From Pseudomonadales bacterium (GTDB lineage Bacteria > Patescibacteriota > Microgenomatia > UBA1400 > PJMF01): a DNA stretch of 64,000 bases. Both the position numbers and the translations under genes were made by a program. Location: positions 663,272 through 727,271 of the forward strand of contig JACKFW010000001.1 of NCBI GenBank assembly GCA_020632265.1. Reading direction: 5' to 3'. Under the pieces are notes generated by a model. The model was not told the origin of the DNA and made no database searches. It was given only the letters and a program-made list of their open reading frames with translations. Below are positions 4,408 to 64,000 of this stretch, in pieces. Numbering within the stretch: position 1 is the stretch's first letter; every line of letters begins with the position of its first letter.

Positions 4408-4428
4408 GCTTTAATAGGCGAACAGACT

Positions 4429-4479
<51 letters not shown>

Positions 4480-16433: not shown

Positions 16434-16451
16434 AAAAATACAAAAATAACA

Positions 16452-20550: not shown

Positions 20551-20626
20551 TGGTGAGTCGAGAGGGACTCGAACCCCCGACCAGTAAGGTATAAGCTTAC
20601 CGCTCTACCAGCTGAGCTATCGACTC
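20551..20626 (-). tRNA. tRNA with anticodon UAU (tRNA-Ile reading AUA), CCA encoded
   Basis: The reverse complement GAGTCGATAGCTCAGCTGGTAGAGCGGTAAGCTTATACCTTACTGGTCGGGGGTTCGAGTCCCTCTCGACTCACCA folds as a cloverleaf with a 7-bp acceptor stem, anticodon stem GTAAG/CTTAC and loop CTTATAC. Confidence 0.8.
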
Positions 20627-37249: not shown

Positions 37250-37266
37250 AATAAATAGTTTAACAC

Positions 37267-38358: not shown

Positions 38359-38406
38359 CTTAGCTTCAGAGTATAGCCTATTGTTGCAAATTTTGCAGTG
38401 ATAATT

Positions 38407-39258: not shown

Positions 39259-39342
39259 ATATTTTTATTTAATATATTTTTATTGTATATATTTTTATTC
39301 AAATATTTTTTGACAGTCTTTTAAAACAATCTAAAAAACTAA

Positions 39343-40521: not shown

Positions 40522-40721
40522 AGTTAAAGTAAGTATACTATGATAAATAATTTTTTGGTTATTAAGCCTAAGTTCTATTGTCCATAAGGAAAATCTTTTT
40601 TCTCGTTAGCAAACAATTTTTAATATTCCATCCAAATCTTGCAGTAATCATTTCTTTAAGTCCTATAGTTATGATATAATGACATTTTGCTACATAGCTA
40701 TTACATATTTTTATAAATAAC

Positions 40722-49144: not shown

Positions 49145-49211
49145 CTTATTATCCTTATTTAGTCATTCTCATTATATTATAATATTTCATTAGTCCATCT
49201 CTACAAATTTT

Positions 49212-49760
49212 TTATTTCAACTGTTTAATCTGTTCAGCATAAACTTCATCCCAACATTCATCTAAAATTTTAATGTGTTTCAAATTTACTAAGCCATCAT
49301 TTTTAATAAATTCCTTTAATTCAGCTTGAGAGAAAAACTTCGTCTCTGATACTTCGGTTGATTCAAAATTAATTACTTCATCATCATAAATTCCTAGATA
49401 GTAGTACATAAAATGCGTTTCCCAAACATATTTTTGCAATTTTTTGTTTATAAAAATTAAGCTAGTATCAAAGCCCAATTCTTCTTCCAACTCTCTGTGA
49501 GCAGTTTCCAACAAATCATCTCCTTTAAGAACATGTCCTGCTGTTAATGACCACATATTTGGATTAACTGTCTTATATTTACTTCTTTTTTGTAAAAGAA
49601 TTTTATTATTTTTATCAATAATAATCACTGAAATTTCTCTGTGTATTAAATTAGGACTTGAGTTTGCTTTCTTTCTAACTACTTCACCAATAATTTCATC
49701 GTTTTCATCAACTAGGTCAAGGATTTCTTCTGGTTTATTGGCTAATTGAGAATTATTCAT
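49212..49760 (-). CDS. Nudix hydrolase
   Basis: Nudix box GHVLKGDDLLETAHRELEEELG. Lacks the IDI-1 Cys/Glu active-site blocks. Confidence 0.7.
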   Translation of the reverse strand: MNNSQLANKPEEILDLVDENDEIIGEVVRKKANSSPNLIHREISVIIIDKNNKILLQKRSKYKTVNPNMWSLTAGHVLKGDDLLETAHRELEEELGFDTSLIFINKKLQKYVWETHFMYYYLGIYDDEVINFESTEVSETKFFSQAELKEFIKNDGLVNLKHIKILDECWDEVYAEQIKQLK

Positions 49761-49818
49761 AAAATTTAGAGAGTGGCTAAACTGTTTAAACTAACTGATA
49801 GGATTCGTGTTTCAGTGA

Positions 49819-50835
49819 TTAAAATAAATGGTCCTTTAAAAATTGTGGTTTTCCTCCAACTTTTGCAGTCAAAATATTTTGTACTAAACTCAATTTTTTC
49901 AACCGCTCTCTAACAATCTTTTCATGTTTAGGTAAAGTTAAAACATGAACATTAAAACCTGTATTTATAGTAAAGTAACACTCAATTCCTTGAGCTCTCA
50001 TATTTTGAACTTCTAAAATCACCTGCACAGTTCCTGGATACCAAAGAACTAGGGGTGGTCTGCTCGTAAGCAATATTGAATGAAATTCTAAACACTCTGC
50101 TTCGACTAACAATCCTAGAGAGGTAAAATCTTTTTCTTTAATGAATTTTTTTGTATCTTTAATTTTTTGCTTAATATTATCTTGTCGTGCTTGAAAAAAG
50201 ATCCCTGAAGCTGCTGACTCATGTCCTTTGGTAGAGGAAATTTTTTTGATACCTGAATCTACAACTGCTACCACATCTACAATATCCCAATGTTCCTTTT
50301 CAAAAATTGTCCTTGAATATGAAGTTTCTGAGGTATTTCCATCAAGCCACTCAACAAATCCACCGACCGCACACCTGCATGCAGTACCTGAAGCTTGTCT
50401 GCTTAAAATACTTAGTTGTTTTTCATTTAATTCCAAACCTATTGCTTTTACTGCTGCAAAAGTTAATGCTGCCATTCCCGAACCAGAACTCGAAAGACCA
50501 GTTCCTCTTGGAAAAGAATTAATTGAAACGACTTTGGCATAGTAATCCGAACCAGGTAAATTTGCTGTTTTTGCAAGGTCACGAATACGATTTAAATGTT
50601 TTGCAACTCTTCTAGCCTCTCTTGAATCATCAGCAATGACTTTGCCACTAATCATAAATTCATCTTTTGAATAATCGCCGGAAAATTTAACCGTTGTTGT
50701 CGTGTCTAACCCATCGAGCTTAATCGAGATACTTCCGTTTTCAGGTAATCTTAAAATTTTGTCTTTTTTGCCCCAATACTTAACTAAAGCAATGTCACTC
50801 GAGGCCTTAACAGTTGCTTTTTTTTCTTCTAACAT
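49819..50835 (-). CDS. mvaD: Diphosphomevalonate decarboxylase
   Basis: IALVKYWGKKDKILRLPENGSISIKL, GHMP motif-2-like GTGLSSSGSGMAAL and ATP-binding region. Confidence 0.85.
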   Translation of the reverse strand: MLEEKKATVKASSDIALVKYWGKKDKILRLPENGSISIKLDGLDTTTTVKFSGDYSKDEFMISGKVIADDSREARRVAKHLNRIRDLAKTANLPGSDYYAKVVSINSFPRGTGLSSSGSGMAALTFAAVKAIGLELNEKQLSILSRQASGTACRCAVGGFVEWLDGNTSETSYSRTIFEKEHWDIVDVVAVVDSGIKKISSTKGHESAASGIFFQARQDNIKQKIKDTKKFIKEKDFTSLGLLVEAECLEFHSILLTSRPPLVLWYPGTVQVILEVQNMRAQGIECYFTINTGFNVHVLTLPKHEKIVRERLKKLSLVQNILTAKVGGKPQFLKDHLF

Positions 50836-50931
50836 ATTATTCCGTTCTTATTTATAACTTTTAGAATTTGTTTTAATAATCAATTAATACTATTTTTGTC
50901 AATTTTAATTGGAGAGTTTTCAAATTTAAAA

Positions 50932-51921
50932 CTATTTTTTCTCCAATCTAACACCTGGAGCATTCAAATTAACTTTAATTATCTTTCCACCAACATTTTT
51001 CATAGCTTTTTCAACTTTTTGACGATTTTTTTCATTAACAATTGTCAAGACACAATCACCACCTGCTGCACCAGAAGCCGTTGATCCATATGCTCCCGCA
51101 TTGTTAGCTGCGACAATTAATTCTTCAATTTTATTATTACTAACTTTCAAGTTTCTTATATACTCTTGAGATTGATTAAATATTTTTCCAACTTTTTTCC
51201 AATCAAATTTTTCCGCAGATTCTACAAAATCATCAGCTAACTTGCCAATTCCATCAAAAACTTTATTTATATATTCCGAATCTTCTTCCAACATATTATT
51301 AACAATTCTAATTAAGGTTGGAGTGTCTGCTTTAGCGCCTGAATAAGCAATTACTATTGGAAGTTGCTCGGCCTTAATTTTTTTAACAATTCTTGCTGGA
51401 GATACAAAATAAAGAGTTCCACCCCAAATTGCCGCAGCCAAATCAAAACCAGAACCTACTCCTTGAACATCTAAAACAGCTTTATAACAAAGTTCAAAGA
51501 GCTCTTTGTTTGACAACTTAACTTTGTAAAGAGTAGTTAGTGCTTTTGCAAAAGCAACCGTGACCGCACTACTAGAACCGAAACCATAAGAACTTGAGAA
51601 ATCGCTACTTGTAGTAACAATAATTCCTTCCTTTTGCGGATGTTTTTCTAAAAAGTTTTTATACAGAATTTCAATAAAACGTACGGCTTTTGGCAAATCT
51701 TTTGTTCCAAGCTCAGAAATAGTTTTTGTATATGCACTCAAACCCAGATCTGGTGCGTCTAAGTGGAATACGTCAATGCCGTTTTTCATTACTGTGGCAT
51801 AAAGTCGTTGATCAACAGCAGTCACAATAGTTGGTCTACCATGCACCACTGCATAGCCCACGGATAACATAAGTTTTCCTGGAGCAGATGCTGTGATTTG
51901 TTGAATTTTATTTTTTGTCAT
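50932..51921 (-). CDS. GHMP kinase, phosphomevalonate kinase-like
   Basis: SAPGKLMLSVGYAVVHG (Pmk-like GYxVL variant) and GFGSSSAVTVAFAKAL (GHMP motif 2). It sits between mvk and mvaD. Confidence 0.65.
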   Translation of the reverse strand: MTKNKIQQITASAPGKLMLSVGYAVVHGRPTIVTAVDQRLYATVMKNGIDVFHLDAPDLGLSAYTKTISELGTKDLPKAVRFIEILYKNFLEKHPQKEGIIVTTSSDFSSSYGFGSSSAVTVAFAKALTTLYKVKLSNKELFELCYKAVLDVQGVGSGFDLAAAIWGGTLYFVSPARIVKKIKAEQLPIVIAYSGAKADTPTLIRIVNNMLEEDSEYINKVFDGIGKLADDFVESAEKFDWKKVGKIFNQSQEYIRNLKVSNNKIEELIVAANNAGAYGSTASGAAGGDCVLTIVNEKNRQKVEKAMKNVGGKIIKVNLNAPGVRLEKK

Positions 51922-51941
51922 ACCAAAAGAGCTATTTTACC

Positions 51942-52856
51942 TTAATTTACTTGAATTTTGTAGTTTCTAGCTGGATTTCTGGCTAAATAAGAATCAAGAA
52001 TACTGTCGTCTAGATGGTAAACTAGCAACAAACCAGAACCATTTTCAATTCCACCCGCACCTGTAATCTTAGCAAATCCTCCTATTGATTCAATTTCCTT
52101 GACCATTTTCTTGGCTTTTTTTCCAACCACGCCCAACTTTTCTAACAACCTTTGATTGATTGAAAGTAAACTTGGATCAAATTTTTGATCAACAATGCTC
52201 GTTATCAAATTATTGGTGACCATTCCAATTTTATTTATTATTTCTTTTTTTTGAGAACTTTTTTCAATATTATTTTTTACTAAATTAACCATTTCTCCCG
52301 TACTTTCAATCGATCTACCAGAGTTTATTAATCTAAAACTCAGAATGGAAGAATTTTCTATTTTTTCTCTTTCAAAATTTTTGTTTATTTTTTTAAATAC
52401 CTGAGTACCTGAAAATACTACCGCAGACGCATCAACCCCACTTGGATTGTTGTGTACAAATTTTTCAGCTTCATATACTAAATCAAAAATTTCTTCTTTT
52501 GATAAATTTAAATTTAAATAATCAATTAATGCCAAAATTATTGCGTGAGCATAGGCTGAAGATGAACCAAGTCCAGATTTTGACGGCAAGTTGGAAGTAA
52601 CTAGAAAGTTTAAATTATCAAGTTCGTTGTCAATTTTTTTCAAGTTTTGGGGATACAAATTTCGATTAATAAGATAATTTTGAAAAACTGAAAGAATATG
52701 ATTCAAATAATTATTTTTTGAAATATTCAAATGATTAATTACCTCTGCTTTTACACCCAAATCAATCGAGGAAACCAATGCTGGTTGACCATAAACAACA
52801 CTATGTTCCCCGCTTAAAATAACTTTCCCTGGTGAGAAAAAAATTTTTTGTTTCAT
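51942..52856 (-). CDS. mvk: Mevalonate kinase
   Basis: SPGKVILSGEHSVVYGQPALVSSI and SKSGLGSSSAYAHAIILAL. Start placed at MKQKIFF; the ORF-track extension to 52961 is probably not translated. Confidence 0.75.
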   Translation of the reverse strand: MKQKIFFSPGKVILSGEHSVVYGQPALVSSIDLGVKAEVINHLNISKNNYLNHILSVFQNYLINRNLYPQNLKKIDNELDNLNFLVTSNLPSKSGLGSSSAYAHAIILALIDYLNLNLSKEEIFDLVYEAEKFVHNNPSGVDASAVVFSGTQVFKKINKNFEREKIENSSILSFRLINSGRSIESTGEMVNLVKNNIEKSSQKKEIINKIGMVTNNLITSIVDQKFDPSLLSINQRLLEKLGVVGKKAKKMVKEIESIGGFAKITGAGGIENGSGLLLVYHLDDSILDSYLARNPARNYKIQVN

Positions 52857-52953
52857 AACACTTATTTGATTTGATTTAAAATCATTTATTTGTCTTGATA
52901 GCAAACTATCAGACATATTGTTAGTCGGAAGAATCACCAAAAACCACGCAAAT

Positions 52954-53250
52954 TTAATCAATTTTTACTAACTTAATGCCGTAATTAATTAATGAAGCTC
53001 TGTCATTTTCCGCAGTTTTTCTTAAAACAAATTCGACTTTATCACCCTTTTTAAGATCTGCTCCTTTTTCACTCATAAATTCATATCTTTCTGAATCCAT
53101 TTCAACAATGGCAAAACAATAAGGAAGGTATTCTTGAAGCTCGGGAGATGTAACTTCAATCTTAGTAACAAACACAATTTTCCCAGTTTTTCCTACAAAG
53201 TTATTCCAATTTTTATTTTGACGCCAATAATCTGCAGGATTAAATTGCAT
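52954..53250 (-). CDS. DUF35 OB-fold protein (thiolase/HMG-CoA synthase scaffold subunit)
   Basis: 98-aa protein with OB-fold-like GKTGKIVFVTKIEV...FAIVEMDSERYEFMSEKGADLKKGDKVEF. Position between thiolase/HMGCS and the kinases. Confidence 0.65.
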   Translation of the reverse strand: MQFNPADYWRQNKNWNNFVGKTGKIVFVTKIEVTSPELQEYLPYCFAIVEMDSERYEFMSEKGADLKKGDKVEFVLRKTAENDRASLINYGIKLVKID

Positions 53251-53261
53251 ATTACTTCTCC

Positions 53262-54626
53262 TTACTTCTCCAAAATATGAACTACTACGGTCGCTCCACT
53301 TCCGCCAACATTATGAGCCAAGGCATATTGAAATTTTTGCTTTCTCAACCCCAACTTAGATTCTGATATCGATCCCGAAGGTGGTTTGAATCCTATTTTG
53401 TCCTGATTTTCGAGGAATTCTGCTAAATAAGCTACCTGTTTTACTCCGGTAGCACCTACGGGATGACCGCATGCTTTTAATCCACCAGAAGGATTAATAA
53501 TAATTTCACCACCAAATGTCGTTTTTCCATCTAAGGTTGCTTTACCACCAGTACCCGGTTTAAAAAAACCCAAATCTTCAATTGCTAAAATCTCCGCAAT
53601 GGTAAAACAATCATGAACTTCAGCAACTTTAACATCATTATGAGTGATTCCCGCATGTGCAAATGCTTCTTTAGCCGCTTTTTTTGTTGCAAGCAAACTC
53701 GTTAAACTTTGTCTATTCGCCAAACTCAAAGAATCTTGCGCGTGACCAAATCCAATGATTTTGGGTTTATTTTCATAGCTAATGATTTTATTTTTTCGCC
53801 TACTTTTACTTATATCTTTTTTATTCAAATTTAAAAGATTGCCAACTTCCTTTGTACTTAAAATTACCGCACTTGCCCCATCTGAAACTGGAGAACAATC
53901 TAAAAGTCTGAGCGGATCCGCCACCATTGAGCTTTTACTTACCTGCTCAGAAGTAAATATTTTCCTAAAATGTGCCTTTGGATTATTGATAGCATGTCGA
54001 TGATTTTTAACTGAAACAGCCGACAGTTGTTCTCTCGTTGTACCATATTTATGCATATGCGCTTTGGCTAACAATGCATAAAGTGCTGGGAAAGTACTTC
54101 CATATTCAAAATCATAGTCTGATGCACTAGAAAGTACTTTAGTTGCTTCATTAGAGTTTAGATCAGTCATTTTCTCTACTCCCAATACCAAAACTGTTTT
54201 GTATCTCCCAGAATTTAGAGCATTTTGCGCGGTTATCAATGCCAACGAGCCAGATGCGCAAGCACCTTCCACCCTAATGGCTGGAGGATAATGATTAAAA
54301 ATCTGACTAACCATCGCATTTAAGTGCAACTGATTATTAAAAAGCCCTGAGGCCATATTTGCAATAAAAACTGCTTCAATTTCTTCTGGATCAAAGTCGT
54401 GATTTTTGGAAACACTCTTGATTACCCCGTTAACAGCTTCGTTAATCAAAACTGCGAGCGATTTATCCCACAACTCTCCAAACTGATCTGAAATATAAGT
54501 TCCAACAATCCTAATTTGTTTTTGTGAATTTCTATTAATTTTTTTTGAACTAAAATCTAGCGTTTTGTTATCAATAATATGCGTTTTGTTATCAATAATA
54601 TGCGTTTTGTTCATATGTTTCATCAA
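53262..54626 (-). CDS. Thiolase-like acetyl-CoA acetyltransferase (archaeal/SCP-x type) with a repeat-containing N-terminal extension
   Basis: IRIVGTYISDQFGEL and catalytic VEGACASGSLAL. C-terminal HNVGGSGATVVVHIL. N-terminus NKTHIIDNKTHIIDNKT comes from a 22-nt DNA repeat. Confidence 0.8.
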   Translation of the reverse strand: MMKHMNKTHIIDNKTHIIDNKTLDFSSKKINRNSQKQIRIVGTYISDQFGELWDKSLAVLINEAVNGVIKSVSKNHDFDPEEIEAVFIANMASGLFNNQLHLNAMVSQIFNHYPPAIRVEGACASGSLALITAQNALNSGRYKTVLVLGVEKMTDLNSNEATKVLSSASDYDFEYGSTFPALYALLAKAHMHKYGTTREQLSAVSVKNHRHAINNPKAHFRKIFTSEQVSKSSMVADPLRLLDCSPVSDGASAVILSTKEVGNLLNLNKKDISKSRRKNKIISYENKPKIIGFGHAQDSLSLANRQSLTSLLATKKAAKEAFAHAGITHNDVKVAEVHDCFTIAEILAIEDLGFFKPGTGGKATLDGKTTFGGEIIINPSGGLKACGHPVGATGVKQVAYLAEFLENQDKIGFKPPSGSISESKLGLRKQKFQYALAHNVGGSGATVVVHILEK

Positions 54627-54718
54627 TAATTGCTGTTAAATATTTTTAACGATTTTAAATATTTTTTTAGCGATTTTAAATATTTTTAACGATTTTATTA
54701 ATTATCAACCTAGATTAT

Positions 54719-55798
54719 TTAATGACTAAATTTTGTATTTTTAACATAAGTATGATAATCAATTTCTTTAAGATCATTAATTTGGTCCTTTAAAAATCTA
54801 TTCCAACCTTTTCTTCTTTTTTCAAGCAAACTTGTCGTCTTAAAAACAAAAGCGTCGCTGCCTGATCCTGAACCATAAGAAACCATTAAAATAATTTGAT
54901 TCTTTTTTGCAACATCGAGCACTGCGCTCAAAGCCATTAAACTAGCCGCCGCATAGGTATTGCCAATTTTTCTAACTACTAAACTTGTCTCAAGTTGTTG
55001 CGAAGTAAAACCAAGACTTTTGGCAATAATTTTTGGGAATTTTTCATTTGGAGTGTGAAAAATGCAGTAATCAAAATCTTTTGGTTTCATTTTTAAATCT
55101 TTCATTATTTTTTTTGCAGCCGTTGAAACATGATAAAAGTAACCAGGTTCACCACTAAATCTACCAGCGTGTTCAGGATGCTGCATTAATGGTCTTCGCC
55201 AAAAATCTGGAGTGTCGGTAGCAATTGAAGTTGTGCCCAATAATTCCACTAAAATATTTTCTCTACCAACCAAAAATGCAACTGAGCCTGCTCCTGCCGT
55301 ATACTCTAAAACATCACCCTGTTTTGATTGAGCGCTGTCAGTTCCAATAGCCAATCCCAAATTTACCATCTTCGATCTAACATAAGAAAAACAGATTTGT
55401 AATGCCTGAGTTCCAGCCTTACAAGCAAATTGTAGGTCAGCCAACGCCAAATTATCTGTTAATCCTAGCGCTTGTTTCACTATTGTTCCAGTTGGTTTAA
55501 CTGCATATGGATGGCTTTCACTTCCAATAAATAAACAACCAATATTTTGTTTAGTATTTTCTTGATTTTTTATGTCTGTTGCAGATCTATGCAACGACTG
55601 AAGTGCGGACTTAATAGACATTGTGGTTGTATCTTCATCAGCAGAGGGAACAGTTTTTTGAGAAACACCAAGAGAACGATAGATATTTGCACCAATCTTT
55701 CCTTGTGCTTCTTCAATACTTTTTCCAGAAACAAAATTCGAAGGAATATATAAACCGTACGAAATAATTCCTACCGATGTTAAAGTTTCACTGTCCAT
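54719..55798 (-). CDS. Hydroxymethylglutaryl-CoA synthase (archaeal-type)
   Basis: VGIISYGLYIP, catalytic Cys region GCLFIGSESHPYAVKP, C-terminal ILMVSYGSGSGSDAF. Confidence 0.8.
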   Translation of the reverse strand: MDSETLTSVGIISYGLYIPSNFVSGKSIEEAQGKIGANIYRSLGVSQKTVPSADEDTTTMSIKSALQSLHRSATDIKNQENTKQNIGCLFIGSESHPYAVKPTGTIVKQALGLTDNLALADLQFACKAGTQALQICFSYVRSKMVNLGLAIGTDSAQSKQGDVLEYTAGAGSVAFLVGRENILVELLGTTSIATDTPDFWRRPLMQHPEHAGRFSGEPGYFYHVSTAAKKIMKDLKMKPKDFDYCIFHTPNEKFPKIIAKSLGFTSQQLETSLVVRKIGNTYAAASLMALSAVLDVAKKNQIILMVSYGSGSGSDAFVFKTTSLLEKRRKGWNRFLKDQINDLKEIDYHTYVKNTKFSH

Positions 55799-55837
55799 AT
55801 TTGTTATCAACTAACTCTTATTTATCAAACAATAAGT

Positions 55838-57100
55838 TTATCTAGCTAATTTTTGATGAGCATCTGCCAACGACTGGTTTGTTAGAGCACATAGTCCAGA
55901 TATTTCACCAGCAAATGCGGCTACTCCAGCAGCAAGAGCAAGGGTCATCGAATTATCATTGGATTTTTTAAAATTTGCTGAAGGCATAATCAAGGCTCTG
56001 GCCTGACTTTGCTTCGGAAACCAAGTTCCACCGCCCACACTACCCACGCTTACTGATGGCAGCGTTAGCGCAACATACAACCCATCACCTTGTTTTTCAA
56101 AAGTAACTGATGCTTCACTGCCACCAACAGCATGGGCTGGATCTTGTCCTGTTGCTATGTAAAATGCAGCAAGTGCATTAGCAACATGCATATTTTGTGC
56201 CATTGAACCCGCAACATTACTGCCTACTAAATTTTTAGCTACATGAGTCTTAAGCAAATCTTTAACATTAACATCAAATACTTTAGTTAAAATTTCTTTT
56301 GAAAGGAAAGCTTCTAACTCAATATTAAAACCTCTACCAAAAATTCTGTTGACAATTGAATCCTTTTTATCAGTACAAACATTACCTGAAATTGAAAGCA
56401 ATTTAACATCTGGATGATCGTTTTTAATCATATTCCAAGTATGTTTTAAAGCGATTGTAACCATATTCATGCCCATTGCTTCATCAGTATCAAAACTAAA
56501 CCTTAAATAAACCAACCTTCCTCGCAGGAATGAATGATAAGACAAAAATTTAAGATGAGAACTAGTGCTCTCGCAGTAATCAACTAGCTTGTGTCGATTC
56601 TTTTTCACCCAATCTAAAAACCTATATGCATCGATTGTACTCAAACACTCAAAAACCAAAGACCTGGTTGAGCCAATTTTCTTAACAATCACAGAAAGAC
56701 TTTTTGACAAGTTTAGAGCCTTACATCCACGATTAATTGATGCAATTAACGCAGCCTCTGTTGTTGCCAAAGGAATAAATATATTGTCGCTATAAGGCTT
56801 GCTTTTATCTTCAAACGACACTACTCCGGAATTCCTATCAGACAACTCTTTTTTGATCACATGTTTTACAAAATTTTCAACCCTAACTGGGCCTACCAGC
56901 CCTACTGGAATTTCAACACTACCAATCATGTTTTCACAATTTTTGCTCCCAGCTCTTTGTACTGGAAAATTGATATCAAATAAATTTTTGAATTTTGATG
57001 GATCTTTGTTTACAGATTTTATGAATTTTTGACGAACCTGAACTTTTTTGGTTTCCGAAAATTTTTCATCTCTGATATAAAAACTGAAATTATTGGACAC
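55838..57100 (-). CDS. hmgA: HMG-CoA reductase, class I
   Basis: ENMIGSVEIPVGLVGPVRV and DAMGMNMV, with GTVGGGT-like VGSVGGGT. Confidence 0.85.
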   Translation of the reverse strand: MSNNFSFYIRDEKFSETKKVQVRQKFIKSVNKDPSKFKNLFDINFPVQRAGSKNCENMIGSVEIPVGLVGPVRVENFVKHVIKKELSDRNSGVVSFEDKSKPYSDNIFIPLATTEAALIASINRGCKALNLSKSLSVIVKKIGSTRSLVFECLSTIDAYRFLDWVKKNRHKLVDYCESTSSHLKFLSYHSFLRGRLVYLRFSFDTDEAMGMNMVTIALKHTWNMIKNDHPDVKLLSISGNVCTDKKDSIVNRIFGRGFNIELEAFLSKEILTKVFDVNVKDLLKTHVAKNLVGSNVAGSMAQNMHVANALAAFYIATGQDPAHAVGGSEASVTFEKQGDGLYVALTLPSVSVGSVGGGTWFPKQSQARALIMPSANFKKSNDNSMTLALAAGVAAFAGEISGLCALTNQSLADAHQKLAR

Positions 57101-57256
57101 AAACAGTTAGTCGTAAAAAATAGTGAAAAACATTCTATGCAGTAATCAACAAATTCTAAATACAACTAAATATTAAACAAAATATTAAAAAAGATATTAT
57201 ATAAAATATTAGATAATATATTTTAATAAATGATATCTAAAATAAAAAAATTAGAA

Positions 57257-57892
57257 CTAAACTAAGTCCTTAAGTGCCGAAATCAACCTTCGATCTCTAA
57301 GCATCATGCAAGACCAAGGAGCAAGAAGTTTTTTCTGATCATTAATTTTAATCTGACACGGTGCAGTTCTGTCTTTGAGTTGATCAAAACTCATCACTAA
57401 AGTTTGCTCTGGAGAAGGAATTGAAGTATTAATATTAATTTGAGCTACTAACTCATCAAGATCGACCCAATCTATCTCACTCACTTCGCTAGCATTTGGT
57501 ATTACTTTTCCTTCATATCTACTTACAAATACCTCATCAAATTCAAATTCTCCATATTTATCATTGCAATATGCTTTATATATAAACTTATAAACTGGAA
57601 TGAGATCCAAATTTTCAATATTTATCTCATCTTTTAATCTTCTCTTTGCACAATTTAAATAAATCTCATCTGGCCTAACATTGCCACAAATTGCATTCGC
57701 CCACCATGAAGCGCCTACAATTTTTTCTAAACTTCTTTTTTGTAACAAAATTTTGCCTTGTTTATTTATTAACCATACTGATACGGCCTGATGAAGTTTT
57801 GCTGGATGTTCATGAGCCTTAAACTTGTCCATCTTTCCAACGTACTTGTCATCGAAATCAACAACTATTACTTTATCTTTGTCATCAATCAT
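57257..57892 (-). CDS. idi: Isopentenyl-diphosphate delta-isomerase, type 1
   Basis: LHQAVSVWLINKQGKILLQKRSLEKIVGASWWANAICGNVRPDE aligns with E. coli Idi [44 protein letters not shown]. C-terminal EFEFDEVFV...EIDWVDLDEL aligns too. Confidence 0.8.
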   Translation of the reverse strand: MIDDKDKVIVVDFDDKYVGKMDKFKAHEHPAKLHQAVSVWLINKQGKILLQKRSLEKIVGASWWANAICGNVRPDEIYLNCAKRRLKDEINIENLDLIPVYKFIYKAYCNDKYGEFEFDEVFVSRYEGKVIPNASEVSEIDWVDLDELVAQININTSIPSPEQTLVMSFDQLKDRTAPCQIKINDQKKLLAPWSCMMLRDRRLISALKDLV

Positions 57893-58233
57893 AATTTTTT
57901 CCTAAAAACTAAGTGAAATCTTATTAATAAGTAGAATAAGAGTATTTGCCAATAAATACAATAAAAAGTTATTACGTTTGAAAGAAAAAACAGAACATTA
58001 CAATCAAAATATCGGATATTTGAGCAACTGATAAACAATCCCAAAATTGGAATAATTAAAATTTTCCACAGCATTGTAACGAACATTAAAATTATACTCG
58101 GCAACAACGACATCCAAACAAAAATCTTTTCTTTAACTAAGGATTGCATCGTTTGATAAGGATGTAATATCAATCCAACAGATATTTGACCTAGTGAATA
58201 TGTGGCGGACAATACAACTTTTCTTTTTTTCAA
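57889..58233 (-). CDS. Small integral membrane protein (3 TM), TTG start. It lies downstream of the ECF sigma factor.
   Basis: TTG preceded by GAGGAATAAAA. Hydrophobic segments. 4-nt overlap with idi. Confidence 0.4.
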   Translation of the reverse strand: MKKRKVVLSATYSLGQISVGLILHPYQTMQSLVKEKIFVWMSLLPSIILMFVTMLWKILIIPILGLFISCSNIRYFDCNVLFFLSNVITFYCIYWQILLFYLLIRFHLVFRKKL

Positions 58234-58454
58234 TTTTATTCCTCAACCACAAGCCCTTAATTAAAAGAGTTCAAAAAATATTGTGGTAATAATTGCTAAA
58301 ATTAACAATGTTTGCCATGAATAAATTCCAACAAAAGATGTTAAGCCATCAAAAAATATCGGAAATATTCTCATTTCATTTAGTTTTTTCTGAGTCAACG
58401 CTTCGTTTTGGAGTTTTGATAAAAAATCATTTTTCATGTTTATTATTTGAGCAA

Positions 58455-59003
58455 TTATTGTTCCTCAAAAACCCGAGATATCGCCCATAATGCCTTGAAC
58501 TCTTTTCGTGCCCTAAAAAGATCTGACTCCACAGCCTTGATACTTTTTCCAAGTTCTGTGGCAATTGCTGCAACTTTTTTATTATCAATATATTTAAGCA
58601 TCAAAATTTCTTGATATTGATTTCTCATTCTCTTCAAAACTTTGGTAACTTTTTCCGAAACCTCAGTCGAATCATCAACATCATCAATCATCAACAAATC
58701 AAAAAGATGAGTAGTTTTTAATGCTTTTTTAGCATATTTTTTACGAAAATAATCGGCAATTTCGTGCCGAGCAATTGAATTCATCCAAGTCCATATACTT
58801 GAATTCCCCCTAAAAAGCGGTAAATGTTTTAAACAATTCAAAAAAGTTTGTTGGACTATTTCCTCTGCATCCTGAGGGTTAGACACTTTTTGAACTACCA
58901 GCGCAAACATTCGATTGTGATAATTATTAAACCATTGGGTCACTGCTCTTGGGTTACCAATTTTTAATTTGGCTAAAAGTTTCATGTCTTTCTCATTTTT
59001 CAT
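58455..59003 (-). CDS. RNA polymerase sigma factor, ECF (sigma-70 group 4) family
   Basis: Region 2 FALVVQKVSNPQDAEEIVQQTFLNCLKHL...WMNSIARHEIADYFR. Region 4 HTH QEILMLKYIDNKKVAAIATELGKSIKAVESDLFRARKEFK. Confidence 0.75.
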   Translation of the reverse strand: MKNEKDMKLLAKLKIGNPRAVTQWFNNYHNRMFALVVQKVSNPQDAEEIVQQTFLNCLKHLPLFRGNSSIWTWMNSIARHEIADYFRKKYAKKALKTTHLFDLLMIDDVDDSTEVSEKVTKVLKRMRNQYQEILMLKYIDNKKVAAIATELGKSIKAVESDLFRARKEFKALWAISRVFEEQ

Positions 59004-59049
59004 CTTCTATTTCCCTATCTAGCTGGCATACTATATAATATCATTACAT

Positions 59050-59427
59050 ATGTCATTTAAGTTTGTTTCAACAGTTTTTGCTCAAGGAAGTCCGTGTGGT
59101 GCTGGACAAGGAGGTTCAATCAATTTGGGCGATTGTCTAAAACTTTCTGACAGCACAACTGTCAGTTCTGTATACAATAATCCCGCATTTTTAGTCAATT
59201 TAGCCGTCAGAAATATATTTGTTCTAGCTGGGGTAGTACTTTTCTTAATGTTTTTTCTTGCTGGATATAAATTCATTACTAAGGGAAAAGATGGCATTGA
59301 AGATGCAAAAAGAATAGTGACAATGTCGATGTTAGGTTTTTCAATAATGTTTGCTGCTTTTTGGATTGTACAATTAGTTTCCCTATTAACTGGCGTAGTT
59401 ATCCCTGGTATAACCATAGGTAGTTAA
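59050..59427 (+). CDS. VirB2/TrbC-like pilin-family small membrane protein, paralog 1 of 8
   Basis: C-terminal module VLAGVVLFLMFFLAGYKFITKGKDGIEDAKRIVTMSMLGFSIMFAAFWIV (helix, basic loop, helix). Confidence 0.55.
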   Translation: MSFKFVSTVFAQGSPCGAGQGGSINLGDCLKLSDSTTVSSVYNNPAFLVNLAVRNIFVLAGVVLFLMFFLAGYKFITKGKDGIEDAKRIVTMSMLGFSIMFAAFWIVQLVSLLTGVVIPGITIGS

Positions 59428-59429
59428 AT

Positions 59430-59855
59430 ATGAAAATACTAAAATCACTATTCTTAACTCTTATCTCATTTTTTACTATCAAGCCAGTGTTTGCTCAAGA
59501 ATTTGATCAATTTGTTGGCAGAGTTGATACCCCAAAGGGAGTGGCTTTGTACAATATTGAAGCAGGCAGTGAAAATATTGCCATTCTTTTATTTTTTTCA
59601 AAATTTATTATGTTTATTACCATGCTCGCTAGTCTTTGGGTAGTAATTAATGTATTAATGGCAGCAATTAGCTATTTAACTGGGGGTGGAAAACCAGACA
59701 ATCATCAAAAAGTTAAAGATAAACTAACAATGAGCGTCTTGGGTTTAATAATTATTGTAAGTTCTTACACAGTTGCGGGATTAATTGGATTAATTTTCTT
59801 TGGAGATGCAACTTATATTATCAATCCAACCATCGCTCCAATTACCGGAGCCTAA
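59430..59855 (+). CDS. VirB2/TrbC-like pilin-family protein, paralog 2
   Basis: Signal peptide ...KPVFA|QE. Module MAAISYLTGGGKPDNHQKVKDKLTMSVLGLIIIVSSYTVAG. Confidence 0.55.
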   Translation: MKILKSLFLTLISFFTIKPVFAQEFDQFVGRVDTPKGVALYNIEAGSENIAILLFFSKFIMFITMLASLWVVINVLMAAISYLTGGGKPDNHQKVKDKLTMSVLGLIIIVSSYTVAGLIGLIFFGDATYIINPTIAPITGA

Positions 59856-59857
59856 TT

Positions 59858-60406
59858 ATGTTATCAAAAATTGTAAAATATTATCTCTCAATTCTGCTTA
59901 TAATATTTTTTTCTTTGAATTTTTTTTATAAACCTCAAGTTGTTTCTGCACAAGCGACATGTAGTTACGTTGGTCAATGCGTGAACAATAAAAAATGTGT
60001 CTGTATTGCTAACTGCAACTCTGTTGTAAATCGCGAACTTGGTCCAGGATCTCAAGATTGTGGTTCAGCGATTATCGGTGGAGTTGAACCACCCGTGGCG
60101 GTTCAAAACATTAATTCGGCATCAGGAGGTGAAATTGGATTGATTTTTTTTCTTTCAAGAATGATTAGATTTGGAACAATTGTCGCAGGAATTTTTGTGA
60201 TTTGGAACTTCGTAGCTGCAGGATTCACATATATTTCAAGCGCAGGAAATGCTGATGCACACGTTAAAGTCCGTGATAAAATCACCTGGAGTGTAATTGG
60301 GATACTAGTAATCGTATCTGCATACACAATCGCTGGAATCATTGGCCTTGTTTATTTCAAAGATCCAACATTCATACTTAATCCTCAAATTGAAGGAGCT
60401 ATTTAG
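59858..60406 (+). CDS. VirB2/TrbC-like pilin-family protein, paralog 3 (Cys-containing mature N-terminal region)
   Basis: Signal peptide ...VVSA|QA. Module AAGFTYISSAGNADAHVKVRDKITWSVIGILVIVSAYTIAG. Confidence 0.55.
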   Translation: MLSKIVKYYLSILLIIFFSLNFFYKPQVVSAQATCSYVGQCVNNKKCVCIANCNSVVNRELGPGSQDCGSAIIGGVEPPVAVQNINSASGGEIGLIFFLSRMIRFGTIVAGIFVIWNFVAAGFTYISSAGNADAHVKVRDKITWSVIGILVIVSAYTIAGIIGLVYFKDPTFILNPQIEGAI

Positions 60407-60431
60407 TATATAATAATTTAAGAAAACAATT

Positions 60432-60812
60432 ATGCTAACAATTTTTGCAACATTAATCGCTCAATTTGGAAATGGAATTCAACCTCCTTCAGAAGCTTAT
60501 AGTGTCGACGGAGATACTCAGGCAGGTGTATTAGCTAATTTTGATTTACTTCTCTCGAATGTTTTAGGTCTTTTTACAATTTTTGGAGGAATTTTCTTTG
60601 TAATATATTTCTTAATAGCTTCGGTTCAATGGATTACATCCGGTGGTGATTCTGGAAAACTCACAGAAGCCCGAAATAAAATGATTCAAGGAGTATTGGG
60701 GTTAGTAATTCTAGTTGCTTCTTATGGCATAATTGGATTAGTTGGCACAATTGTGGGCATTGATATAATTAATCCAGTAGCACAGCTTGAAAAAATCATA
60801 CCTGGAAATTAA
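60432..60812 (+). CDS. VirB2/TrbC-like pilin-family protein, paralog 4
   Basis: Module IASVQWITSGGDSGKLTEARNKMIQGVLGLVILVASYGIIG. Confidence 0.55.
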   Translation: MLTIFATLIAQFGNGIQPPSEAYSVDGDTQAGVLANFDLLLSNVLGLFTIFGGIFFVIYFLIASVQWITSGGDSGKLTEARNKMIQGVLGLVILVASYGIIGLVGTIVGIDIINPVAQLEKIIPGN

Positions 60813-60817
60813 ATTTT

Positions 60818-61243
60818 ATGAAAAAAATCATTACCAAGCTTTCAGCAATGGCATTAATTGTTAGATTATCTTTGGGTTTATTTGTTTTTAAGGTATTAGC
60901 GTTTACTAATCCAGTTATTGGCGAAAGCTTAGGAGGTAATGCCGAGGAAGCAGCAGATGGAACGACCTTCGTTAATTACTTTGTTACAGTTTGGAACGCA
61001 TTCATTGTAATCGGAGCAATTTTAGTCTTGATTTATTTCCTATGGGGAGCCATTCAATGGATTTCTGCAGGAGGAGATAAATCCAAAATCGAAACAGCTA
61101 GAAACAGGATTACTCATTCAATCTTGGGATTAATTATTCTCGTTAGTTCGTTTGTGATTATAGGATTTATCAGCAGTCTTTTATTTGGTGATGAATTTTC
61201 TATCCTCAACTTACAATTTGTTGCTCCAGGAGAAGCACCATAA
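60818..61243 (+). CDS. VirB2/TrbC-like pilin-family protein, paralog 5
   Basis: Module WGAIQWISAGGDKSKIETARNRITHSILGLIILVSSFVIIG. Confidence 0.55.
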   Translation: MKKIITKLSAMALIVRLSLGLFVFKVLAFTNPVIGESLGGNAEEAADGTTFVNYFVTVWNAFIVIGAILVLIYFLWGAIQWISAGGDKSKIETARNRITHSILGLIILVSSFVIIGFISSLLFGDEFSILNLQFVAPGEAP

Positions 61244-61713
61244 TGAAAACAAAAAATAAATCAATATATAAAAAATTAAACATCAGCGTTTTTTTTGTTT
61301 TCTTTTTCATTTTTGCAACGTTTAACACTGTGTTATTGCCTAATAATTTTATTAAAACTATTTTTATGCCTCACATTGTACAAGCAGTTGAATTAAATAT
61401 TGGTGATGCGGCAAAAAGCGCAGCAGTGCCAGGAACTGCAGATTATGATTCAGCTGATCCAGAAGGCAGTTTTGGGATACTTGTGGGCAAAGCACTCAAT
61501 ATTGCAATTGTAATAGGCGCAATTTTAGTTTTTGGCTATCTCATTTGGGGTGGAGTCGAATGGATTACTTCAGGTGGTGACAAAGGAAAAATCGAAAACG
61601 CTAGAAATAGAATTACTCAATCAATTATTGGATTACTCATATTGGCTTCAGTTGTAGCTTTATTTGTTTTTGTTCAATCTTTCTTGGGATTAGAAGTACT
61701 AACCTTCAATTAA
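61243..61713 (+). CDS. VirB2/TrbC-like pilin-family protein, paralog 6
   Basis: Module WGGVEWITSGGDKGKIENARNRITQSIIGLLILASVVALF. The start overlaps the previous stop (ATGA). Confidence 0.55.
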   Translation: MKTKNKSIYKKLNISVFFVFFFIFATFNTVLLPNNFIKTIFMPHIVQAVELNIGDAAKSAAVPGTADYDSADPEGSFGILVGKALNIAIVIGAILVFGYLIWGGVEWITSGGDKGKIENARNRITQSIIGLLILASVVALFVFVQSFLGLEVLTFN

Positions 61714-61994
61714 ATTTAATATGTTATTAGTATATTAAATTACGCAAAATTGAAAAATTTATACAATTAGATAATTGTTAATTAATCATTTTATTTGTTC
61801 ATTATATTTTCGCCTTACACACTTAATTCCTGATAATAAACATTTTATCAAATATGCTTTTTTATAAACAAATGACCTTAAATATATAAATAATAATCAA
61901 AAAAAAATTTACCTTGACTATTTATTTTAAAAACAGGTATAATTAGCTATTAAGTATTCAGTTTAAACTGATAATTAAAGTATATAAGGAGTTT

Positions 61995-62366
61995 ATGAAA
62001 AAAAGTCTTAAAAGCTTAGCAGTGGCCTCAAGCGCTTTAGTTGCAACCGCAACCACAGCTTTTGCTGCAACAACACCAGTGGAACCAGGAGATGTTTTCT
62101 TCACCGATATTGGTCAATTAATTAATAAAGCACTAAACTTCGTAATGGTTCTTGGCGCACTTTTGGTCTTCGGTTACCTAATTTGGGGTGGAGTCGAATG
62201 GATTACTTCAGGTGGTGACAAAGGAAAAACTGAATCAGCACGTAATAAAATTACTGCTGCAGTCGTAGGACTTATCGTCCTTGCTGCATCATGGGCAATC
62301 TTAATGTTGCTACTCGGTTTCTTGGGAACTGATCTTAATTCACTCTTTACTGAAGCAGGAATCTAA
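61995..62366 (+). CDS. VirB2/TrbC-like pilin-family protein, paralog 7. Candidate major subunit: monocistronic, with a strong RBS and its own terminator.
   Basis: RBS TAAGGAGTTTATG. Signal peptide ...TTAFA|AT. Module WGGVEWITSGGDKGKTESARNKITAAVVGLIVLAASWAIL. A 280-nt AT-rich upstream region, then a GC-rich terminator. Confidence 0.6.
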   Translation: MKKSLKSLAVASSALVATATTAFAATTPVEPGDVFFTDIGQLINKALNFVMVLGALLVFGYLIWGGVEWITSGGDKGKTESARNKITAAVVGLIVLAASWAILMLLLGFLGTDLNSLFTEAGI

Positions 62367-62390
62367 GCTTCTTTTTCATTTGAATTTAAA

Positions 62391-62420
62391 CCCCCTCACT
62401 AAGAGGGGGTTTTTGGTTTT
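62391..62420 (+). terminator. Rho-independent terminator
   Basis: CCCCCTC-actaa-GAGGGGG followed by TTTTTGGTTTT. Confidence 0.8.
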
Positions 62421-62449
62421 AATAAATACCTGATATAATTAAGCTATTC

Positions 62450-62884
62450 ATGAAATCAAAACAACAAAAAAATCCAAAATTCTTTAACAAGACTCAAAAA
62501 CTATTATTTATAGTCGTTGCTTCCCTATATTCATCTTCATCTGCTTTTGCTCAAACAGCTTCATGGTCTGGAGTTTGTGTAGCTGGAGCAGATAACGATG
62601 TCGCAACTATTCAAGGTCTCGAGTGTTTAATTGCAAATATTTTTACCGTGATTATCTCTTTAATAGGTCTGGCCGCATTTGTAATGTTCATCATTGGATC
62701 TATACAATGGTTAATCTCCGGAGGAAACAGTGCCGATGGTACAAAAAAAGCCAAAGATACATTAACATACGCGGTTATCGGCATTGTTATAGCACTTAGT
62801 GCATTTATTGTTCTCAATTTAATCACAGGATTTACTGGAGTTGAGAATATTAGAGAATTTGTAATCCCAACTTCAGACTCCTAA
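62450..62884 (+). CDS. VirB2/TrbC-like pilin-family protein, paralog 8
   Basis: Signal peptide ...SSSAFA|QT. Module IGSIQWLISGGNSADGTKKAKDTLTYAVIGIVIALSAFIVL. Confidence 0.5.
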   Translation: MKSKQQKNPKFFNKTQKLLFIVVASLYSSSSAFAQTASWSGVCVAGADNDVATIQGLECLIANIFTVIISLIGLAAFVMFIIGSIQWLISGGNSADGTKKAKDTLTYAVIGIVIALSAFIVLNLITGFTGVENIREFVIPTSDS

Positions 62885-62906
62885 ACATTTAAGGTATAAT
62901 TTCGAT

Positions 62907-64000
62907 GTGTATAAAAAGTATTTAACTTCTATTTTTTTTGCGATTTTTTGTTTAGCTTTTCTTGTCAAGCCGAATAATGTGATTGCCTCAGAATTAATTG
63001 GAACACATCTTGGTGAAGGTGATGTTGGAACACAAATTAATATTATTAACAACATTTTGGTTCCAAATGGCCTTGAACCTGGTAGCCCTGTAACAGTAAT
63101 GGTTGGAATCAACATGCTCCAGCCAAGCCAATTTGGAACGGTCCAAAGTTTGGCCAATGCTGTCAAAAACGCTGGATATTTTCCAATTGTCAGAATTAAC
63201 GACGTCTGTAATCCCGTAGACGCTGGCAGTGGAATTACTCCAACTTCAGCAGTTGAGGCTGCTAAAACCGCGTTTGGTGAAAACGCAATAATTGTCTGGG
63301 GCAATGAAGTTAACAACAAAGTACGTGAGTGTAGTAATTGGGACAAATACGCGGTTGACTTCATATCAATTATGAATATTCCCAACGTTTCCCCCGCAGC
63401 GCTTGATTTTTATAATAGTGACTATCCAGCAAACGATTTTATAAATTTCTTAGCTGATAATCATGGGTTAGATGGGTTTAAAATATATAATTCCCATCCT
63501 ATTTACGCTGCCAATGCCTATGGTTGTGTAGGCTCGTCTTTAGAAAGTTGCGATCCGACAACAACAGATACTCATTACAGAGGATTTGAGAGCTTGCCTG
63601 GAACAATATATTTAACCGAATTTTCACTTTCTCCAGGAGGAAGTCCTGCTCCAGACCAAAATTTAGAAAATGTACGCATATTTATTGAACAAAAAGGAAG
63701 AGAAGCATCTCCGCCAGCAGTCAAAATTACGCCTCTTGTCAGAAATATTTGTAATAACGAGGGTGAATGGCTCTTATACGTTAACGGTCGATTTTTTACT
63801 ACTTCAGGAACTCAAGTGAACGAAGACGAGTGTGAAGGCGCTGAAGGATCGAGTGAATTTGATTTAAGCAAATATCCAAACTACGACATTGATAACGAAT
63901 TATTTTTTATTACTCCAATCAGAAGTGTGATCAAAAACAACATTCCCGACAGAACAGTTGAGAATCTTAGAAAAGAACTTGTGGATCAGGGATATGAAGC
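62907..64000 (+). CDS. Secreted hypothetical protein, GTG start, 3'-partial (open to the window end). Possibly a glycoside-hydrolase-like fold.
   Basis: Frame 62907 is open for more than 360 codons. N-terminal signal peptide (V/M)YKKYLTSIFFAIFCLAFLVKPNNVIA. RBS AAGG 13 nt upstream. An IIVWGNEVNN block resembles a GH catalytic-acid region (weak). Confidence 0.4.
   Translation, partial: MYKKYLTSIFFAIFCLAFLVKPNNVIASELIGTHLGEGDVGTQINIINNILVPNGLEPGSPVTVMVGINMLQPSQFGTVQSLANAVKNAGYFPIVRINDVCNPVDAGSGITPTSAVEAAKTAFGENAIIVWGNEVNNKVRECSNWDKYAVDFISIMNIPNVSPAALDFYNSDYPANDFINFLADNHGLDGFKIYNSHPIYAANAYGCVGSSLESCDPTTTDTHYRGFESLPGTIYLTEFSLSPGGSPAPDQNLENVRIFIEQKGREASPPAVKITPLVRNICNNEGEWLLYVNGRFFTTSGTQVNEDECEGAEGSSEFDLSKYPNYDIDNELFFITPIRSVIKNNIPDRTVENLRKELVDQGYE

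Follow-up and report, generated by a model that had tools for sequence, protein, structure and literature searches.

The 64-kb window under study (the whole stretch of 64,000 nucleotides analysed here, from contig JACKFW010000001.1 of assembly GCA_020632265.1) carried near its end eight consecutive genes, designated P1 to P8, whose products share a module resembling the pilins of type IV secretion systems (T4SS). All eight open reading frames (ORFs) were on the + strand, exactly where an earlier reading made without database searches (the sequence-only reading) had placed them, and they encoded proteins of 123-182 aa. The size range of 125-182 aa given in that reading was right in general, with P7, at 123 aa, falling slightly below it. 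P1 to P6 were packed like an operon, as had also been proposed, with intergenic gaps of 2, 2, 25, 5 and -1 nt; P7 followed after 281 nt and P8 after another 83 nt.

P1 (59050-59427, +; 125 aa) consisted of a short N-terminal hydrophobic stretch running to FAQ, an ectodomain with two cysteines and a two-helix hairpin. P2 (59430-59855, +; 141 aa) had a signal peptide that ended VFAQ, and P3 (59858-60406, +; 182 aa) had a Cys-rich ectodomain of approximately 60 residues, with six cysteines before the hairpin. P2 and P3 were 43% identical across 106 aa. P4 (60432-60812, +; 126 aa) combined a short N-terminus with the full WITSGGD...ARNK loop motif. P5 (60818-61243, +) and P6 (61243-61713, +) encoded 141 and 156 aa, respectively, the start of P6 overlapping the P5 stop by 1 nt. 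P7 (61995-62366, +; 123 aa), with a canonical signal peptide that ended AFA|A, had a monocistronic layout, and P8 (62450-62884, +; 144 aa) was the last gene of the array. The sequence-only reading had ascribed a Sec-type signal or a hydrophobic N-terminus to each protein. This was correct for most of them, but the N-termini of P1 and P4, with only about 11 hydrophobic residues before 'AQ', did not look like standard signal peptides. In P1, this short N-terminus was seen again in the closest relatives, loci L003 and L004. P7 was identical to the NCBI protein H6772_03595, and its exact sequence also occurred on two short metagenome contigs, L001 (JGI 3300010350) and L002 (ENA ERZ28655887), both with the same array, the other genes of which had hidden Markov model (HMM) scores equal to those of the window proteins. 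As the two metagenomes are independent of each other, the organism has turned up in more than one sampling. P7 had 839 database relatives, the best 120 of which were 58-100% identical.

Two strong hydrophobic segments were located near the C-terminus of all eight proteins, and the hydropathy profiles placed between them a loop of 15-18 aa with a net charge of +1 to +2. The C-terminal module that had been described as common to the whole array was thus present in every member as a two-helix hairpin, but the literal loop motif, W-I-T/S-S/A-G-G-D-x-x-K-x-E-x-A-R-N-K/R, was confined to P4-P7 and was degenerate in P1-P3 and P8. Apart from the initiator Met, the alignment of P1-P8 contained one invariant Gly column. 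The pairwise local alignment scores among the paralogs were 5-44 standard deviations above those of shuffled sequences, and the top Pfam match for all eight was PF18895 (T4SS_pilin), with E-values from 2e-11 to 1e-3. As all eight proteins match one Pfam model and their alignments beat the shuffled controls, the shared module is not a product of chance, and the membership of P1-P8 in the PF18895 family is near certain.

The gathering cut-off of PF18895, applied to the whole-protein HMM score, is 26.6 bits. P4 (32.5 bits), P5 (31.0 bits), P6 (31.7 bits), P7 (44.1 bits, the highest score) and P8 (40.1 bits) were above this value, as was B2 (29.5 bits), one of two further members of the family in the window, B1 and B2, that are described below. 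P1 (20.3 bits, E 6e-4), P2 (21.9 bits) and P3 (19.3 bits, E 1.2e-3) scored in the range of 19-22 bits and B1 scored 24.2 bits, all under the cut-off; these four were joined to the family through a local HMM of the array (E 1e-11 to 1e-49) and through homologs with precomputed PF18895 matches. P3-P8 also gave sub-threshold matches to NF045849 (19-36 bits against a cut-off of 40, with 19.4 bits for P3 and E-values down to 5.5e-9). The matches to PF04956 (TrbC/VirB2) were weak, 17.8 bits for P8 and 16.3 bits for P7 against a cut-off of 27.9, and the Pfam scan found no PF04956 match for P1-P6, but several P7 homologs have precomputed PF04956 matches. A PADLOC search gave no defence-system match for the pilins.

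The AlphaFold model of P7 was a hairpin of two helices, residues 39-71 and 76-110, with a predicted local distance difference test (pLDDT) score above 90. A Foldseek search of the PDB with this model returned nothing at E < 1, the hairpin fold being too simple for such a test. Where the segment that precedes the hairpin is Cys-rich, it is for this reason taken to be exported. Hydropathy, loop charge, the AlphaFold hairpin and a gene fusion described below all indicated the same architecture, a signal peptide, two transmembrane (TM) helices, a short basic loop and termini on the outside, so that the predicted insertion is N-out/C-out, with the loop probably in the cytoplasm. The module is the helix-loop-helix type of the T4SS pilins, unlike that of the type IVa pilins, in agreement with the sequence-only reading and consistent with the PF18895 matches, the weak TrbC matches of P7 and P8 and the modelled hairpin.

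The relatives of the array were collected by a scan with P7, limited to one genome per species, which gave 21 loci with P7 orthologs 40-72% identical. Metagenome loci were added by anchoring on the sigma factor gene that adjoins the array, for a total of approximately 30 related loci. The P7-anchored loci had 4-12 tandem pilin-module genes, each of which was assigned to the best-matching paralog of the window. The order was the same everywhere, (B1-B2)...P1-P2-P3-P4-P5-P6-P7(x1-3)-P8, in the 21 genome loci as well as the longer of the metagenome loci; the synteny check called for by the sequence-only reading therefore showed a collinear array. The best BLAST identity to the assigned window paralog was mostly 40-77% in the 21 loci, compared to 20-36% for most pairs of paralogs, the exceptions being P2/P3, P4/P7, P5/P7, P5/P6 and P6/P7, which were 43-60% identical over the module only. 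The positional orthologs of P1 were 37-66% identical in most related loci, those of P3 36-52%, those of P4 33-77% and those of P8 46-73%; P2 likewise had orthologs in related loci, and P8 was always the last gene of the array. The hairpin module of P7 was the best conserved among orthologs (approximately 71%), and P7 was the only member that varied in copy number, with 1-3 copies in the relatives. The presence of positional orthologs in the same order in some 30 loci indicates that the set is ancient and fixed and that each member is under its own constraint. A fixed, collinear set of orthologs argues for specialised subunits and against a cassette for antigenic variation.

In five related loci, the P5 and P6 orthologs were fused in frame to form a single ORF of 271-277 aa (L003, 4402-5229; L004, 9076-9891; L032, 3411-4238; L033, 3366-4181; L034, 3394-4227). 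In the fusions that were aligned, those of L003 and L004, a short acidic linker was located exactly in place of the P6 signal peptide; in L032-L034 the fusion was deduced from the ORF length together with the paired P5 and P6 BLAST ranges. Replacement of the P6 signal peptide by a hydrophilic linker places the C-terminus of P5 and the N-terminus of mature P6 on the same, outer side of the membrane. The fusion of the two proteins in some lineages also means that both are used together and hints that P5 and P6 are neighbours in the assembly.

Upstream of P7 there was a sigma-70-type promoter, TTGACT-18-TATAAT (61914-61943, +), with 11 of 12 consensus matches, and a ribosome-binding site, AAGGAG (61986-61991, +), that was read directly from the sequence; only P7 has a long leader with AAGGAG. 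An intrinsic terminator, identified by a terminator scan and by direct reading, followed the gene (62388 to 62412 or 62422, +), with a 10-bp GC-rich stem and then a T-run. Corresponding signals were seen again at most single-copy P7 orthologs. The best sigma-70-type site 5' of the P7 ortholog had 10-11 of the 12 consensus positions in 10 of 16 related loci, and the exact TTGACT-18-TATAAT recurred at L003, L004 and L008. A hairpin and T-run followed the ortholog in 11 of the 16. The individual promoter, ribosome-binding site and terminator, the best conserved module and the highest Pfam score make P7 a candidate for the major subunit, and it looks like one.

A -10 box, TATAAT (59034-59039, +), ended 10 nt before the ATG of P1 and is likely to be the -10 element of a P1-P6 transcript; a TATAAT-like box was present 5-13 nt 5' of the P1 start in 18 of 20 related loci. 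Similarly, an extended -10 box, TGATATAAT (62431-62439, +), ended 10 nt before the ATG of P8, and the giant gene downstream of the array had a TATAAT box (62895-62900, +) 6 nt before its GTG. P1, P8 and the giant gene lacked a Shine-Dalgarno sequence, and the transcripts that begin at P1 (P1 or P1-P6), at P8 and at the giant gene are probably leaderless. The number of sites returned by a window-wide promoter scan was no higher than in shuffled sequence, so that only the conserved promoter sites carry weight. An extended promoter-like site, TTGGCA-16-TATAAT with an upstream TG and 11 of 12 matches, was also noted inside the 3' end of P4 (60742-60769, +), 49 nt before P5, and could be an internal promoter for P5-P6.

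The divergent extracytoplasmic function (ECF) sigma factor reported by the sequence-only reading was confirmed. The gene (58455-59003, -; 182 aa) was separated from P1 by a 46-nt gap, and its product had Sigma70_r2 and Sigma70_r4_2 domains and a TIGR02937 score of 70 bits, compared to a cut-off of 42.9. A 3-TM protein had been placed downstream of it; a multi-TM gene was indeed present, but a 58-aa protein with one C-terminal TM segment (58261-58437, -) was encoded in between, directly 3' of the sigma gene. In 11 loci tblastn located a counterpart of this small protein in the corresponding place, with 30-70% identity. It matched no anti-sigma family in the Pfam scan and is a candidate for a minimal anti-sigma factor. 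The third gene of the cassette encodes the multi-TM protein (57889-58233, -; 114 aa), which has no Pfam family and accompanied the sigma gene in 14 of the 15 P7-anchored loci that had one and also in L032-L037. Of the 19 informative P7-anchored loci, 15 had the sigma gene beside the array, also when the rest of the neighbourhood was different. When the sigma gene was used as the anchor, a divergent pilin array was present in 10 of 10 metagenome loci with a sigma factor at least 33% identical and in none of the 70 whose ECF sigma gene was of a generic kind (21-32% identical). The linkage of the sigma cassette to the array is thus specific in both directions and suggests that the sigma factor may drive the array. 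An ECF-type promoter motif was not found in the sigma-P1 intergenic regions of the 21 loci or 5' of P7, where only housekeeping TATAAT boxes were conserved.

The HMM built from the eight paralogs found two further members in the window. The product of B1 (46406-47638, +; 410 aa) has a signal peptide, about 300 residues of Cys-rich ectodomain and, at the C-terminus, a pilin hairpin. Many B1 homologs have the PF18895 domain, and the AlphaFold model of B1 (pLDDT 85) had immunoglobulin (Ig)-like or macroglobulin-like beta-sandwiches followed by the hairpin. B2 (47644-48381, +) encodes 245 aa with the same arrangement, the Cys-rich ectodomain between signal peptide and pilin hairpin being shorter, about 140 residues. 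P1 and B2 were each other's closest paralog (z = 21). B2 was kept beside B1 in L007, L008, L017, L019, L020, L021 and L036. The B-type genes abutted the array in L021 (B1 and B2) and in L023 (a single B1-like gene), and in other loci they were 3-5 kb upstream of it. Their position next to or near the array in the relatives makes B1 and B2 part of the same system as P1-P8. In this genome the two groups were separated by the mevalonate/sigma block. The complete mevalonate-pathway block (48434-57892, -) comprised genes for UPP synthase, a NUDIX protein, diphosphomevalonate decarboxylase, two GHMP kinases, thiolase, HMG-CoA synthase, HMG-CoA reductase and an IDI-like NUDIX protein; its content and position varied among the relatives, and in L021 no such block was present between B1/B2 and the array.

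A gene for a SpoIID-domain protein (44491-46245, -; 584 aa) was divergent from B1. The protein had one N-terminal TM segment, a coiled-coil region and a PF08486 match with an E-value of 1e-19, and the gene was kept beside B1 in L007, L008, L017, L020 and L021. It is a possible cell-wall remodelling partner of the system, a role that is filled by VirB1 in classical systems.

Directly 3' of the array began the giant gene, which encodes a large secreted protein with a signal-peptide-like N-terminus and was cut by the end of the window (62907-64000, +). Full-length counterparts of 1100-1551 aa followed the array in most relatives, among them L005 (10944-14465), L006 (10977-14495), L007, L018, L020 (12082-16737), L021 (11568-15101), L035 and L036. 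No Pfam family was found in the giant protein or in the counterparts that were scanned. The giant gene was followed by three more large ORFs in L006 (362-878 aa) and three in L021 (289-757 aa), and five of these, when scanned, gave no Pfam family either. A block of conserved proteins of unknown nature therefore adjoins the pilins.

Tandem pilin genes of this kind have been described previously. The survey of Quinonero-Coronel et al. 2025 (PMC12102498) reports 441 arrays of VirB2-like genes, each with 2-11 members, from 383 Patescibacteria assemblies, with a mean identity of 25% within an array and a particularly high frequency in Microgenomatia and Saccharimonadia, and a pilin gene close to virB4 in 1135 of 1948 assemblies. 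The pilin arrays of Patescibacteria have also been reviewed (PMC12857230), and in Ca. Southlakia epibionticum, according to Wang et al. 2023 (PMC10633639), a predicted pilin series lies inside the essential T4SS cluster SEML1_0006-0019. The suggestion that the genes might constitute a new family consequently did not survive, since the family is already PF18895 and such arrays are published in all three sources. As arrays are defined in PMC12102498, by at least two PF18895- or PF04956-positive genes in a Patescibacteria genome that are in tandem or have one non-pilin gene between them, the consecutive genes P1-P8 are one of them. The threshold of that survey was an i-Evalue < 0.001, for which P3 was borderline (1.2e-3), together with more than 50% HMM coverage, and the E-value was the one applied here. 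A search of the supplementary tables of PMC12102498 for H6772 and BroJett025 gave no match. The present array resembles the published ones in the PF18895 match, the tandem divergent genes that are approximately 25% identical, the Microgenomatia affiliation to which the names of the relatives point and the monoderm host from the Candidate Phyla Radiation (CPR). It differs from them in that it lies outside any recognisable T4SS cluster, between the mevalonate block and the giant secreted protein, and in having an ECF-type sigma cassette coupled to it; PMC12102498 nowhere uses the word 'sigma'. In the portions of PMC12102498, PMC10633639 and PMC12857230 that were consulted, no mention was found of the positional orthology, of P7 laid out as a major subunit, of fused P5-P6 genes or of members with large ectodomains such as B1 and B2.

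The array proteins have in common with VirB2, TrbC and TraA (PF04956), the subunits of the T-pilus and F-pilus, their small size, the long signal peptide ending A-x-A(Q), the two hydrophobic helices, the short basic loop and the location of both termini outside. The differences are a marginal sequence similarity (16-18 bits with the TrbC HMM against the cut-off of 27.9, and an hhalign probability of 1%), a longer loop of about 15 aa with its own conserved motif, 8-10 paralogs instead of one and the lack of virB1 or virB3 beside the pilin genes. The virB2 genes fetched for comparison, eight annotated VirB2/TrbC genes of conjugative plasmids of mating-pair-formation type T (MPF-T), were all beside virB3 and most of them were beside a lytic transglycosylase gene. 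NF045849, the Mbov_0395 family of pilin-like conjugal transfer proteins from the integrative and conjugative elements (ICEs) of Mycoplasma, is similar in that the hairpin aligned over 55-73 residues of the 80-position model and in that its host is monoderm or wall-less; it differs in that the scores obtained here were under its cut-off and in that it is a single gene within a conjugative element. The type IV pilins, with an N-terminal G|F(T/S)LIE helix, a globular head and a PilB/PilC machine, differ entirely in both fold and assembly machine. The minor-pilin sets of type II secretion and type IV pili, GspH-I-J-K and FimU-PilVWX, offer a functional analogy only: one abundant major subunit is accompanied by individually conserved low-copy paralogs encoded in an operon of fixed order. 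Some of the minor pilins bear larger tip domains.

Taken together, P1-P8 with B1 and B2 are probably a fixed, ancient set of specialised VirB2-like subunits of a Microgenomates-type CPR bacterium that are assembled by a T4SS, an interpretation that we favour with moderate confidence. The subunits would collect in the cytoplasmic membrane after Sec export and cleavage of the signal peptide at A-x-A, often followed by Q, and a VirB4-powered T4SS of the monoderm type, encoded elsewhere in the genome, would then extract them and polymerise a pilus or an envelope-spanning tube. P7 would be the bulk subunit. P1-P6 and P8 would be present in few copies, each in a dedicated position (such as priming, base, adaptor or tip), much as minor pilins are in type II secretion and type IV pili, and B1 and B2 would be adhesin-bearing subunits that show Ig-like or Cys-rich ectodomains. 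The structure may allow the bacterium to contact a host cell or to enter into exchange with it, the function put forward for the essential Southlakia pilins. A more specific version, in which the product is a T4SS-type pilus that is a heteropolymer of P7 as the major, P1-P6 and P8 as the minor and B1/B2 as the adhesin-bearing subunits and is tied to a membrane-coupled ECF sigma/anti-sigma switch, is tentative, a possibility rather than an expectation; the switch could report host contact or the state of the envelope. If the heteropolymer exists, it would be a T4SS-derived organelle in a monoderm bacterium with a subunit complexity rivalling that of type IV pili.

Several observations weigh against this interpretation, 1) hhalign of a 57-sequence profile of the P7 family with the eight MPF-T VirB2/TrbC sequences gave a probability of 1.1% and aligned only the A-x-A-Q end of the signal peptide, 2) the same profile, searched against the PDB sequences, found no pilin at E-values up to 10, only chance matches to CD20, 3) the ectodomains of B1 and B2 are hard to pack in a filament except at an end, 4) the role of the Patescibacteria T4SS is called unknown in the literature, and a filament is not known to have been seen in any Patescibacterium and 5) no assembly machine was recognised nearby. 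The last of these rests on a Pfam scan that covered essentially all window ORFs reaching 100 aa, except for a few frames that overlapped others or were unlisted, in which VirB4, VirB3, VirB6 and VirB8 were not recognised; the search for VirB4, VirB6 and VirB8 recommended in the sequence-only reading was thus negative for the 64-kb window. Likewise, no VirB4-type ATPase or VirB6 was recognised among the Pfam-scanned conserved large ORFs 3' of the array in the relatives. The partner machine is therefore assumed rather than seen.

The chances that the hairpin subunits form a filament are about evenly balanced. It is conceivable, though on the whole unlikely, that there is no extracellular filament and that the hairpins are membrane-embedded parts of a monoderm T4SS channel or anchors that display variable ectodomains. 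According to the literature, monoderm T4SSs have neither pili nor VirB2 homologues, and the related NF045849 model comes from the ICEs of wall-less Mycoplasma. Moreover, B1 and B2 bear ectodomains of 140-300 aa on the same hairpin, a sequence link to the classical pilus-forming VirB2 was not detectable, and the neighbourhood lacks the T4SS core genes. However, the P7 gene is laid out like that of an abundant structural subunit, the mature P7 ectodomain has only about 15 aa, ten different hairpin proteins, all conserved, would be a large number for a channel part, and the conjugative pilins have the same kind of basic loop and the same N-out/C-out topology.

The sequence-only reading had suggested that the array serves antigenic or host-range variation. 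Such a diversification cassette of interchangeable pilin variants, which has also been suggested for Patescibacteria arrays, would be comparable to the VirB2 paralogs of Bartonella and Anaplasma, which are cited in PMC12102498, where adaptation to different host strains is raised. Those arrays share with the present one the tandem VirB2-type genes and the host-dependent organism, but they are read as antigenic variation and the array here consists of ancient positional orthologs. The low identity within the array (19-25% globally, near the mean of 25% in PMC12102498), the lower conservation of the exposed N-terminal segments (22-59%) than of the hairpins (49-71%) among orthologs and the 1-3 copies of P7 in the relatives would be expected of a cassette. 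Nevertheless, every paralog had a positional ortholog in approximately 30 loci of different species, and the orthologs were much closer than the paralogs. No shuffling and no silent or partial cassettes were seen, and P7 alone showed lineage-specific expansion. The P5-P6 fusion in some lineages and the distinct, conserved expression signals of the units are also difficult to reconcile with interchangeable variants, and a cassette is quite improbable. The age of the paralogs and the conservation of each of them make division of labour a likely purpose of the array and variation an unlikely one.

The idea that the products are unrelated small membrane proteins, such as DctQ- or TctB-like transporter subunits mis-annotated as pilins, has in its favour the weak TctB and DctQ matches of P7 (E 0.02-0.06), the JGI labels 'TRAP-type transporter small permease' or 'cytochrome bd subunit 2' of some homologs and the fact that the PF18895 label rests on remote similarity rather than experiment. 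It is very improbable, as the TctB and DctQ matches are far under the cut-offs and PF18895 is above its cut-off for six proteins, no transporter partner genes are nearby, and in Saccharibacteria, according to the literature, the same family lies inside a T4SS cluster and is essential.

The locus does not represent a new kind of system. What it adds is the positional orthology, a candidate for the major subunit in P7, the P5-P6 fusion, B1/B2 and the sigma linkage. The fusion predicts that P5 and P6 occupy adjacent positions in the specialised-subunit assembly favoured here, and the sigma cassette is a possible handle on its regulation. A recent review calls the T4SS of Patescibacteria possibly the most exciting newcomer of the T4SS superfamily, and the pilin series is reported to be essential in Southlakia, the sole species tested so far.

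The sequence-only reading had also proposed that the array encodes the pilus of a T4SS-like ATPase located at 24.4-26.7 kb. This protein (24375-26702) belongs to the FtsK/HerA superfamily and has an N-terminal hydrophobic segment; its best matches, all weak, were to TraD, the VirD4-like CD1115, DotL and TrwB. It was rejected as the pilus motor on the grounds that it resembles a type IV coupling protein (T4CP) or HerA rather than VirB4, with weak matches, and that it lies 32 kb from the array among unrelated neighbours (Lgt, DUF192, GH3). According to the literature, T4CP homologues are mostly unlinked to virB4 and are dispensable in Southlakia.

The GC content of the DNA was approximately 32%. 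The 23S rRNA gene (4087-7959, -) spanned 3,873 nt, compared to 2,925 nt for the model, and contained an ORF for a LAGLIDADG homing endonuclease (5181-5669, -). Intron-interrupted 23S genes are common in CPR bacteria. The close relatives were named Pacebacteria, Woesebacteria or Patescibacteria. The CPR origin that had been presumed earlier follows from the LAGLIDADG insertion in the 23S gene and from the names of the relatives, and the name Pseudomonadales on the source record is a mislabel. A 5S rRNA gene was located at 3485-3601, and no 16S rRNA gene was found in the window.

Three other features of the window were noted. An unusual tRNA-Ile with the anticodon UAU was encoded at 20551-20626 (-); in most bacteria AUA is read by a lysidine-modified CAU tRNA. 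The region 35384-44414 encoded an ATP-dependent DNA ligase, a Fic-domain protein, an NAD(P)HX dehydratase, a RecF/SMC-like ATPase and a 1230-aa ATPase (PADLOC mad8/mad3), and part of it may be a defence island. Finally, three large genes at 14877-20483 (+), for a 518-aa unknown protein, a 683-aa protein with DUF11 repeats and a weak match to a tip-pilin Ig-like domain and a 576-aa unknown protein, may encode another cell-surface structure.

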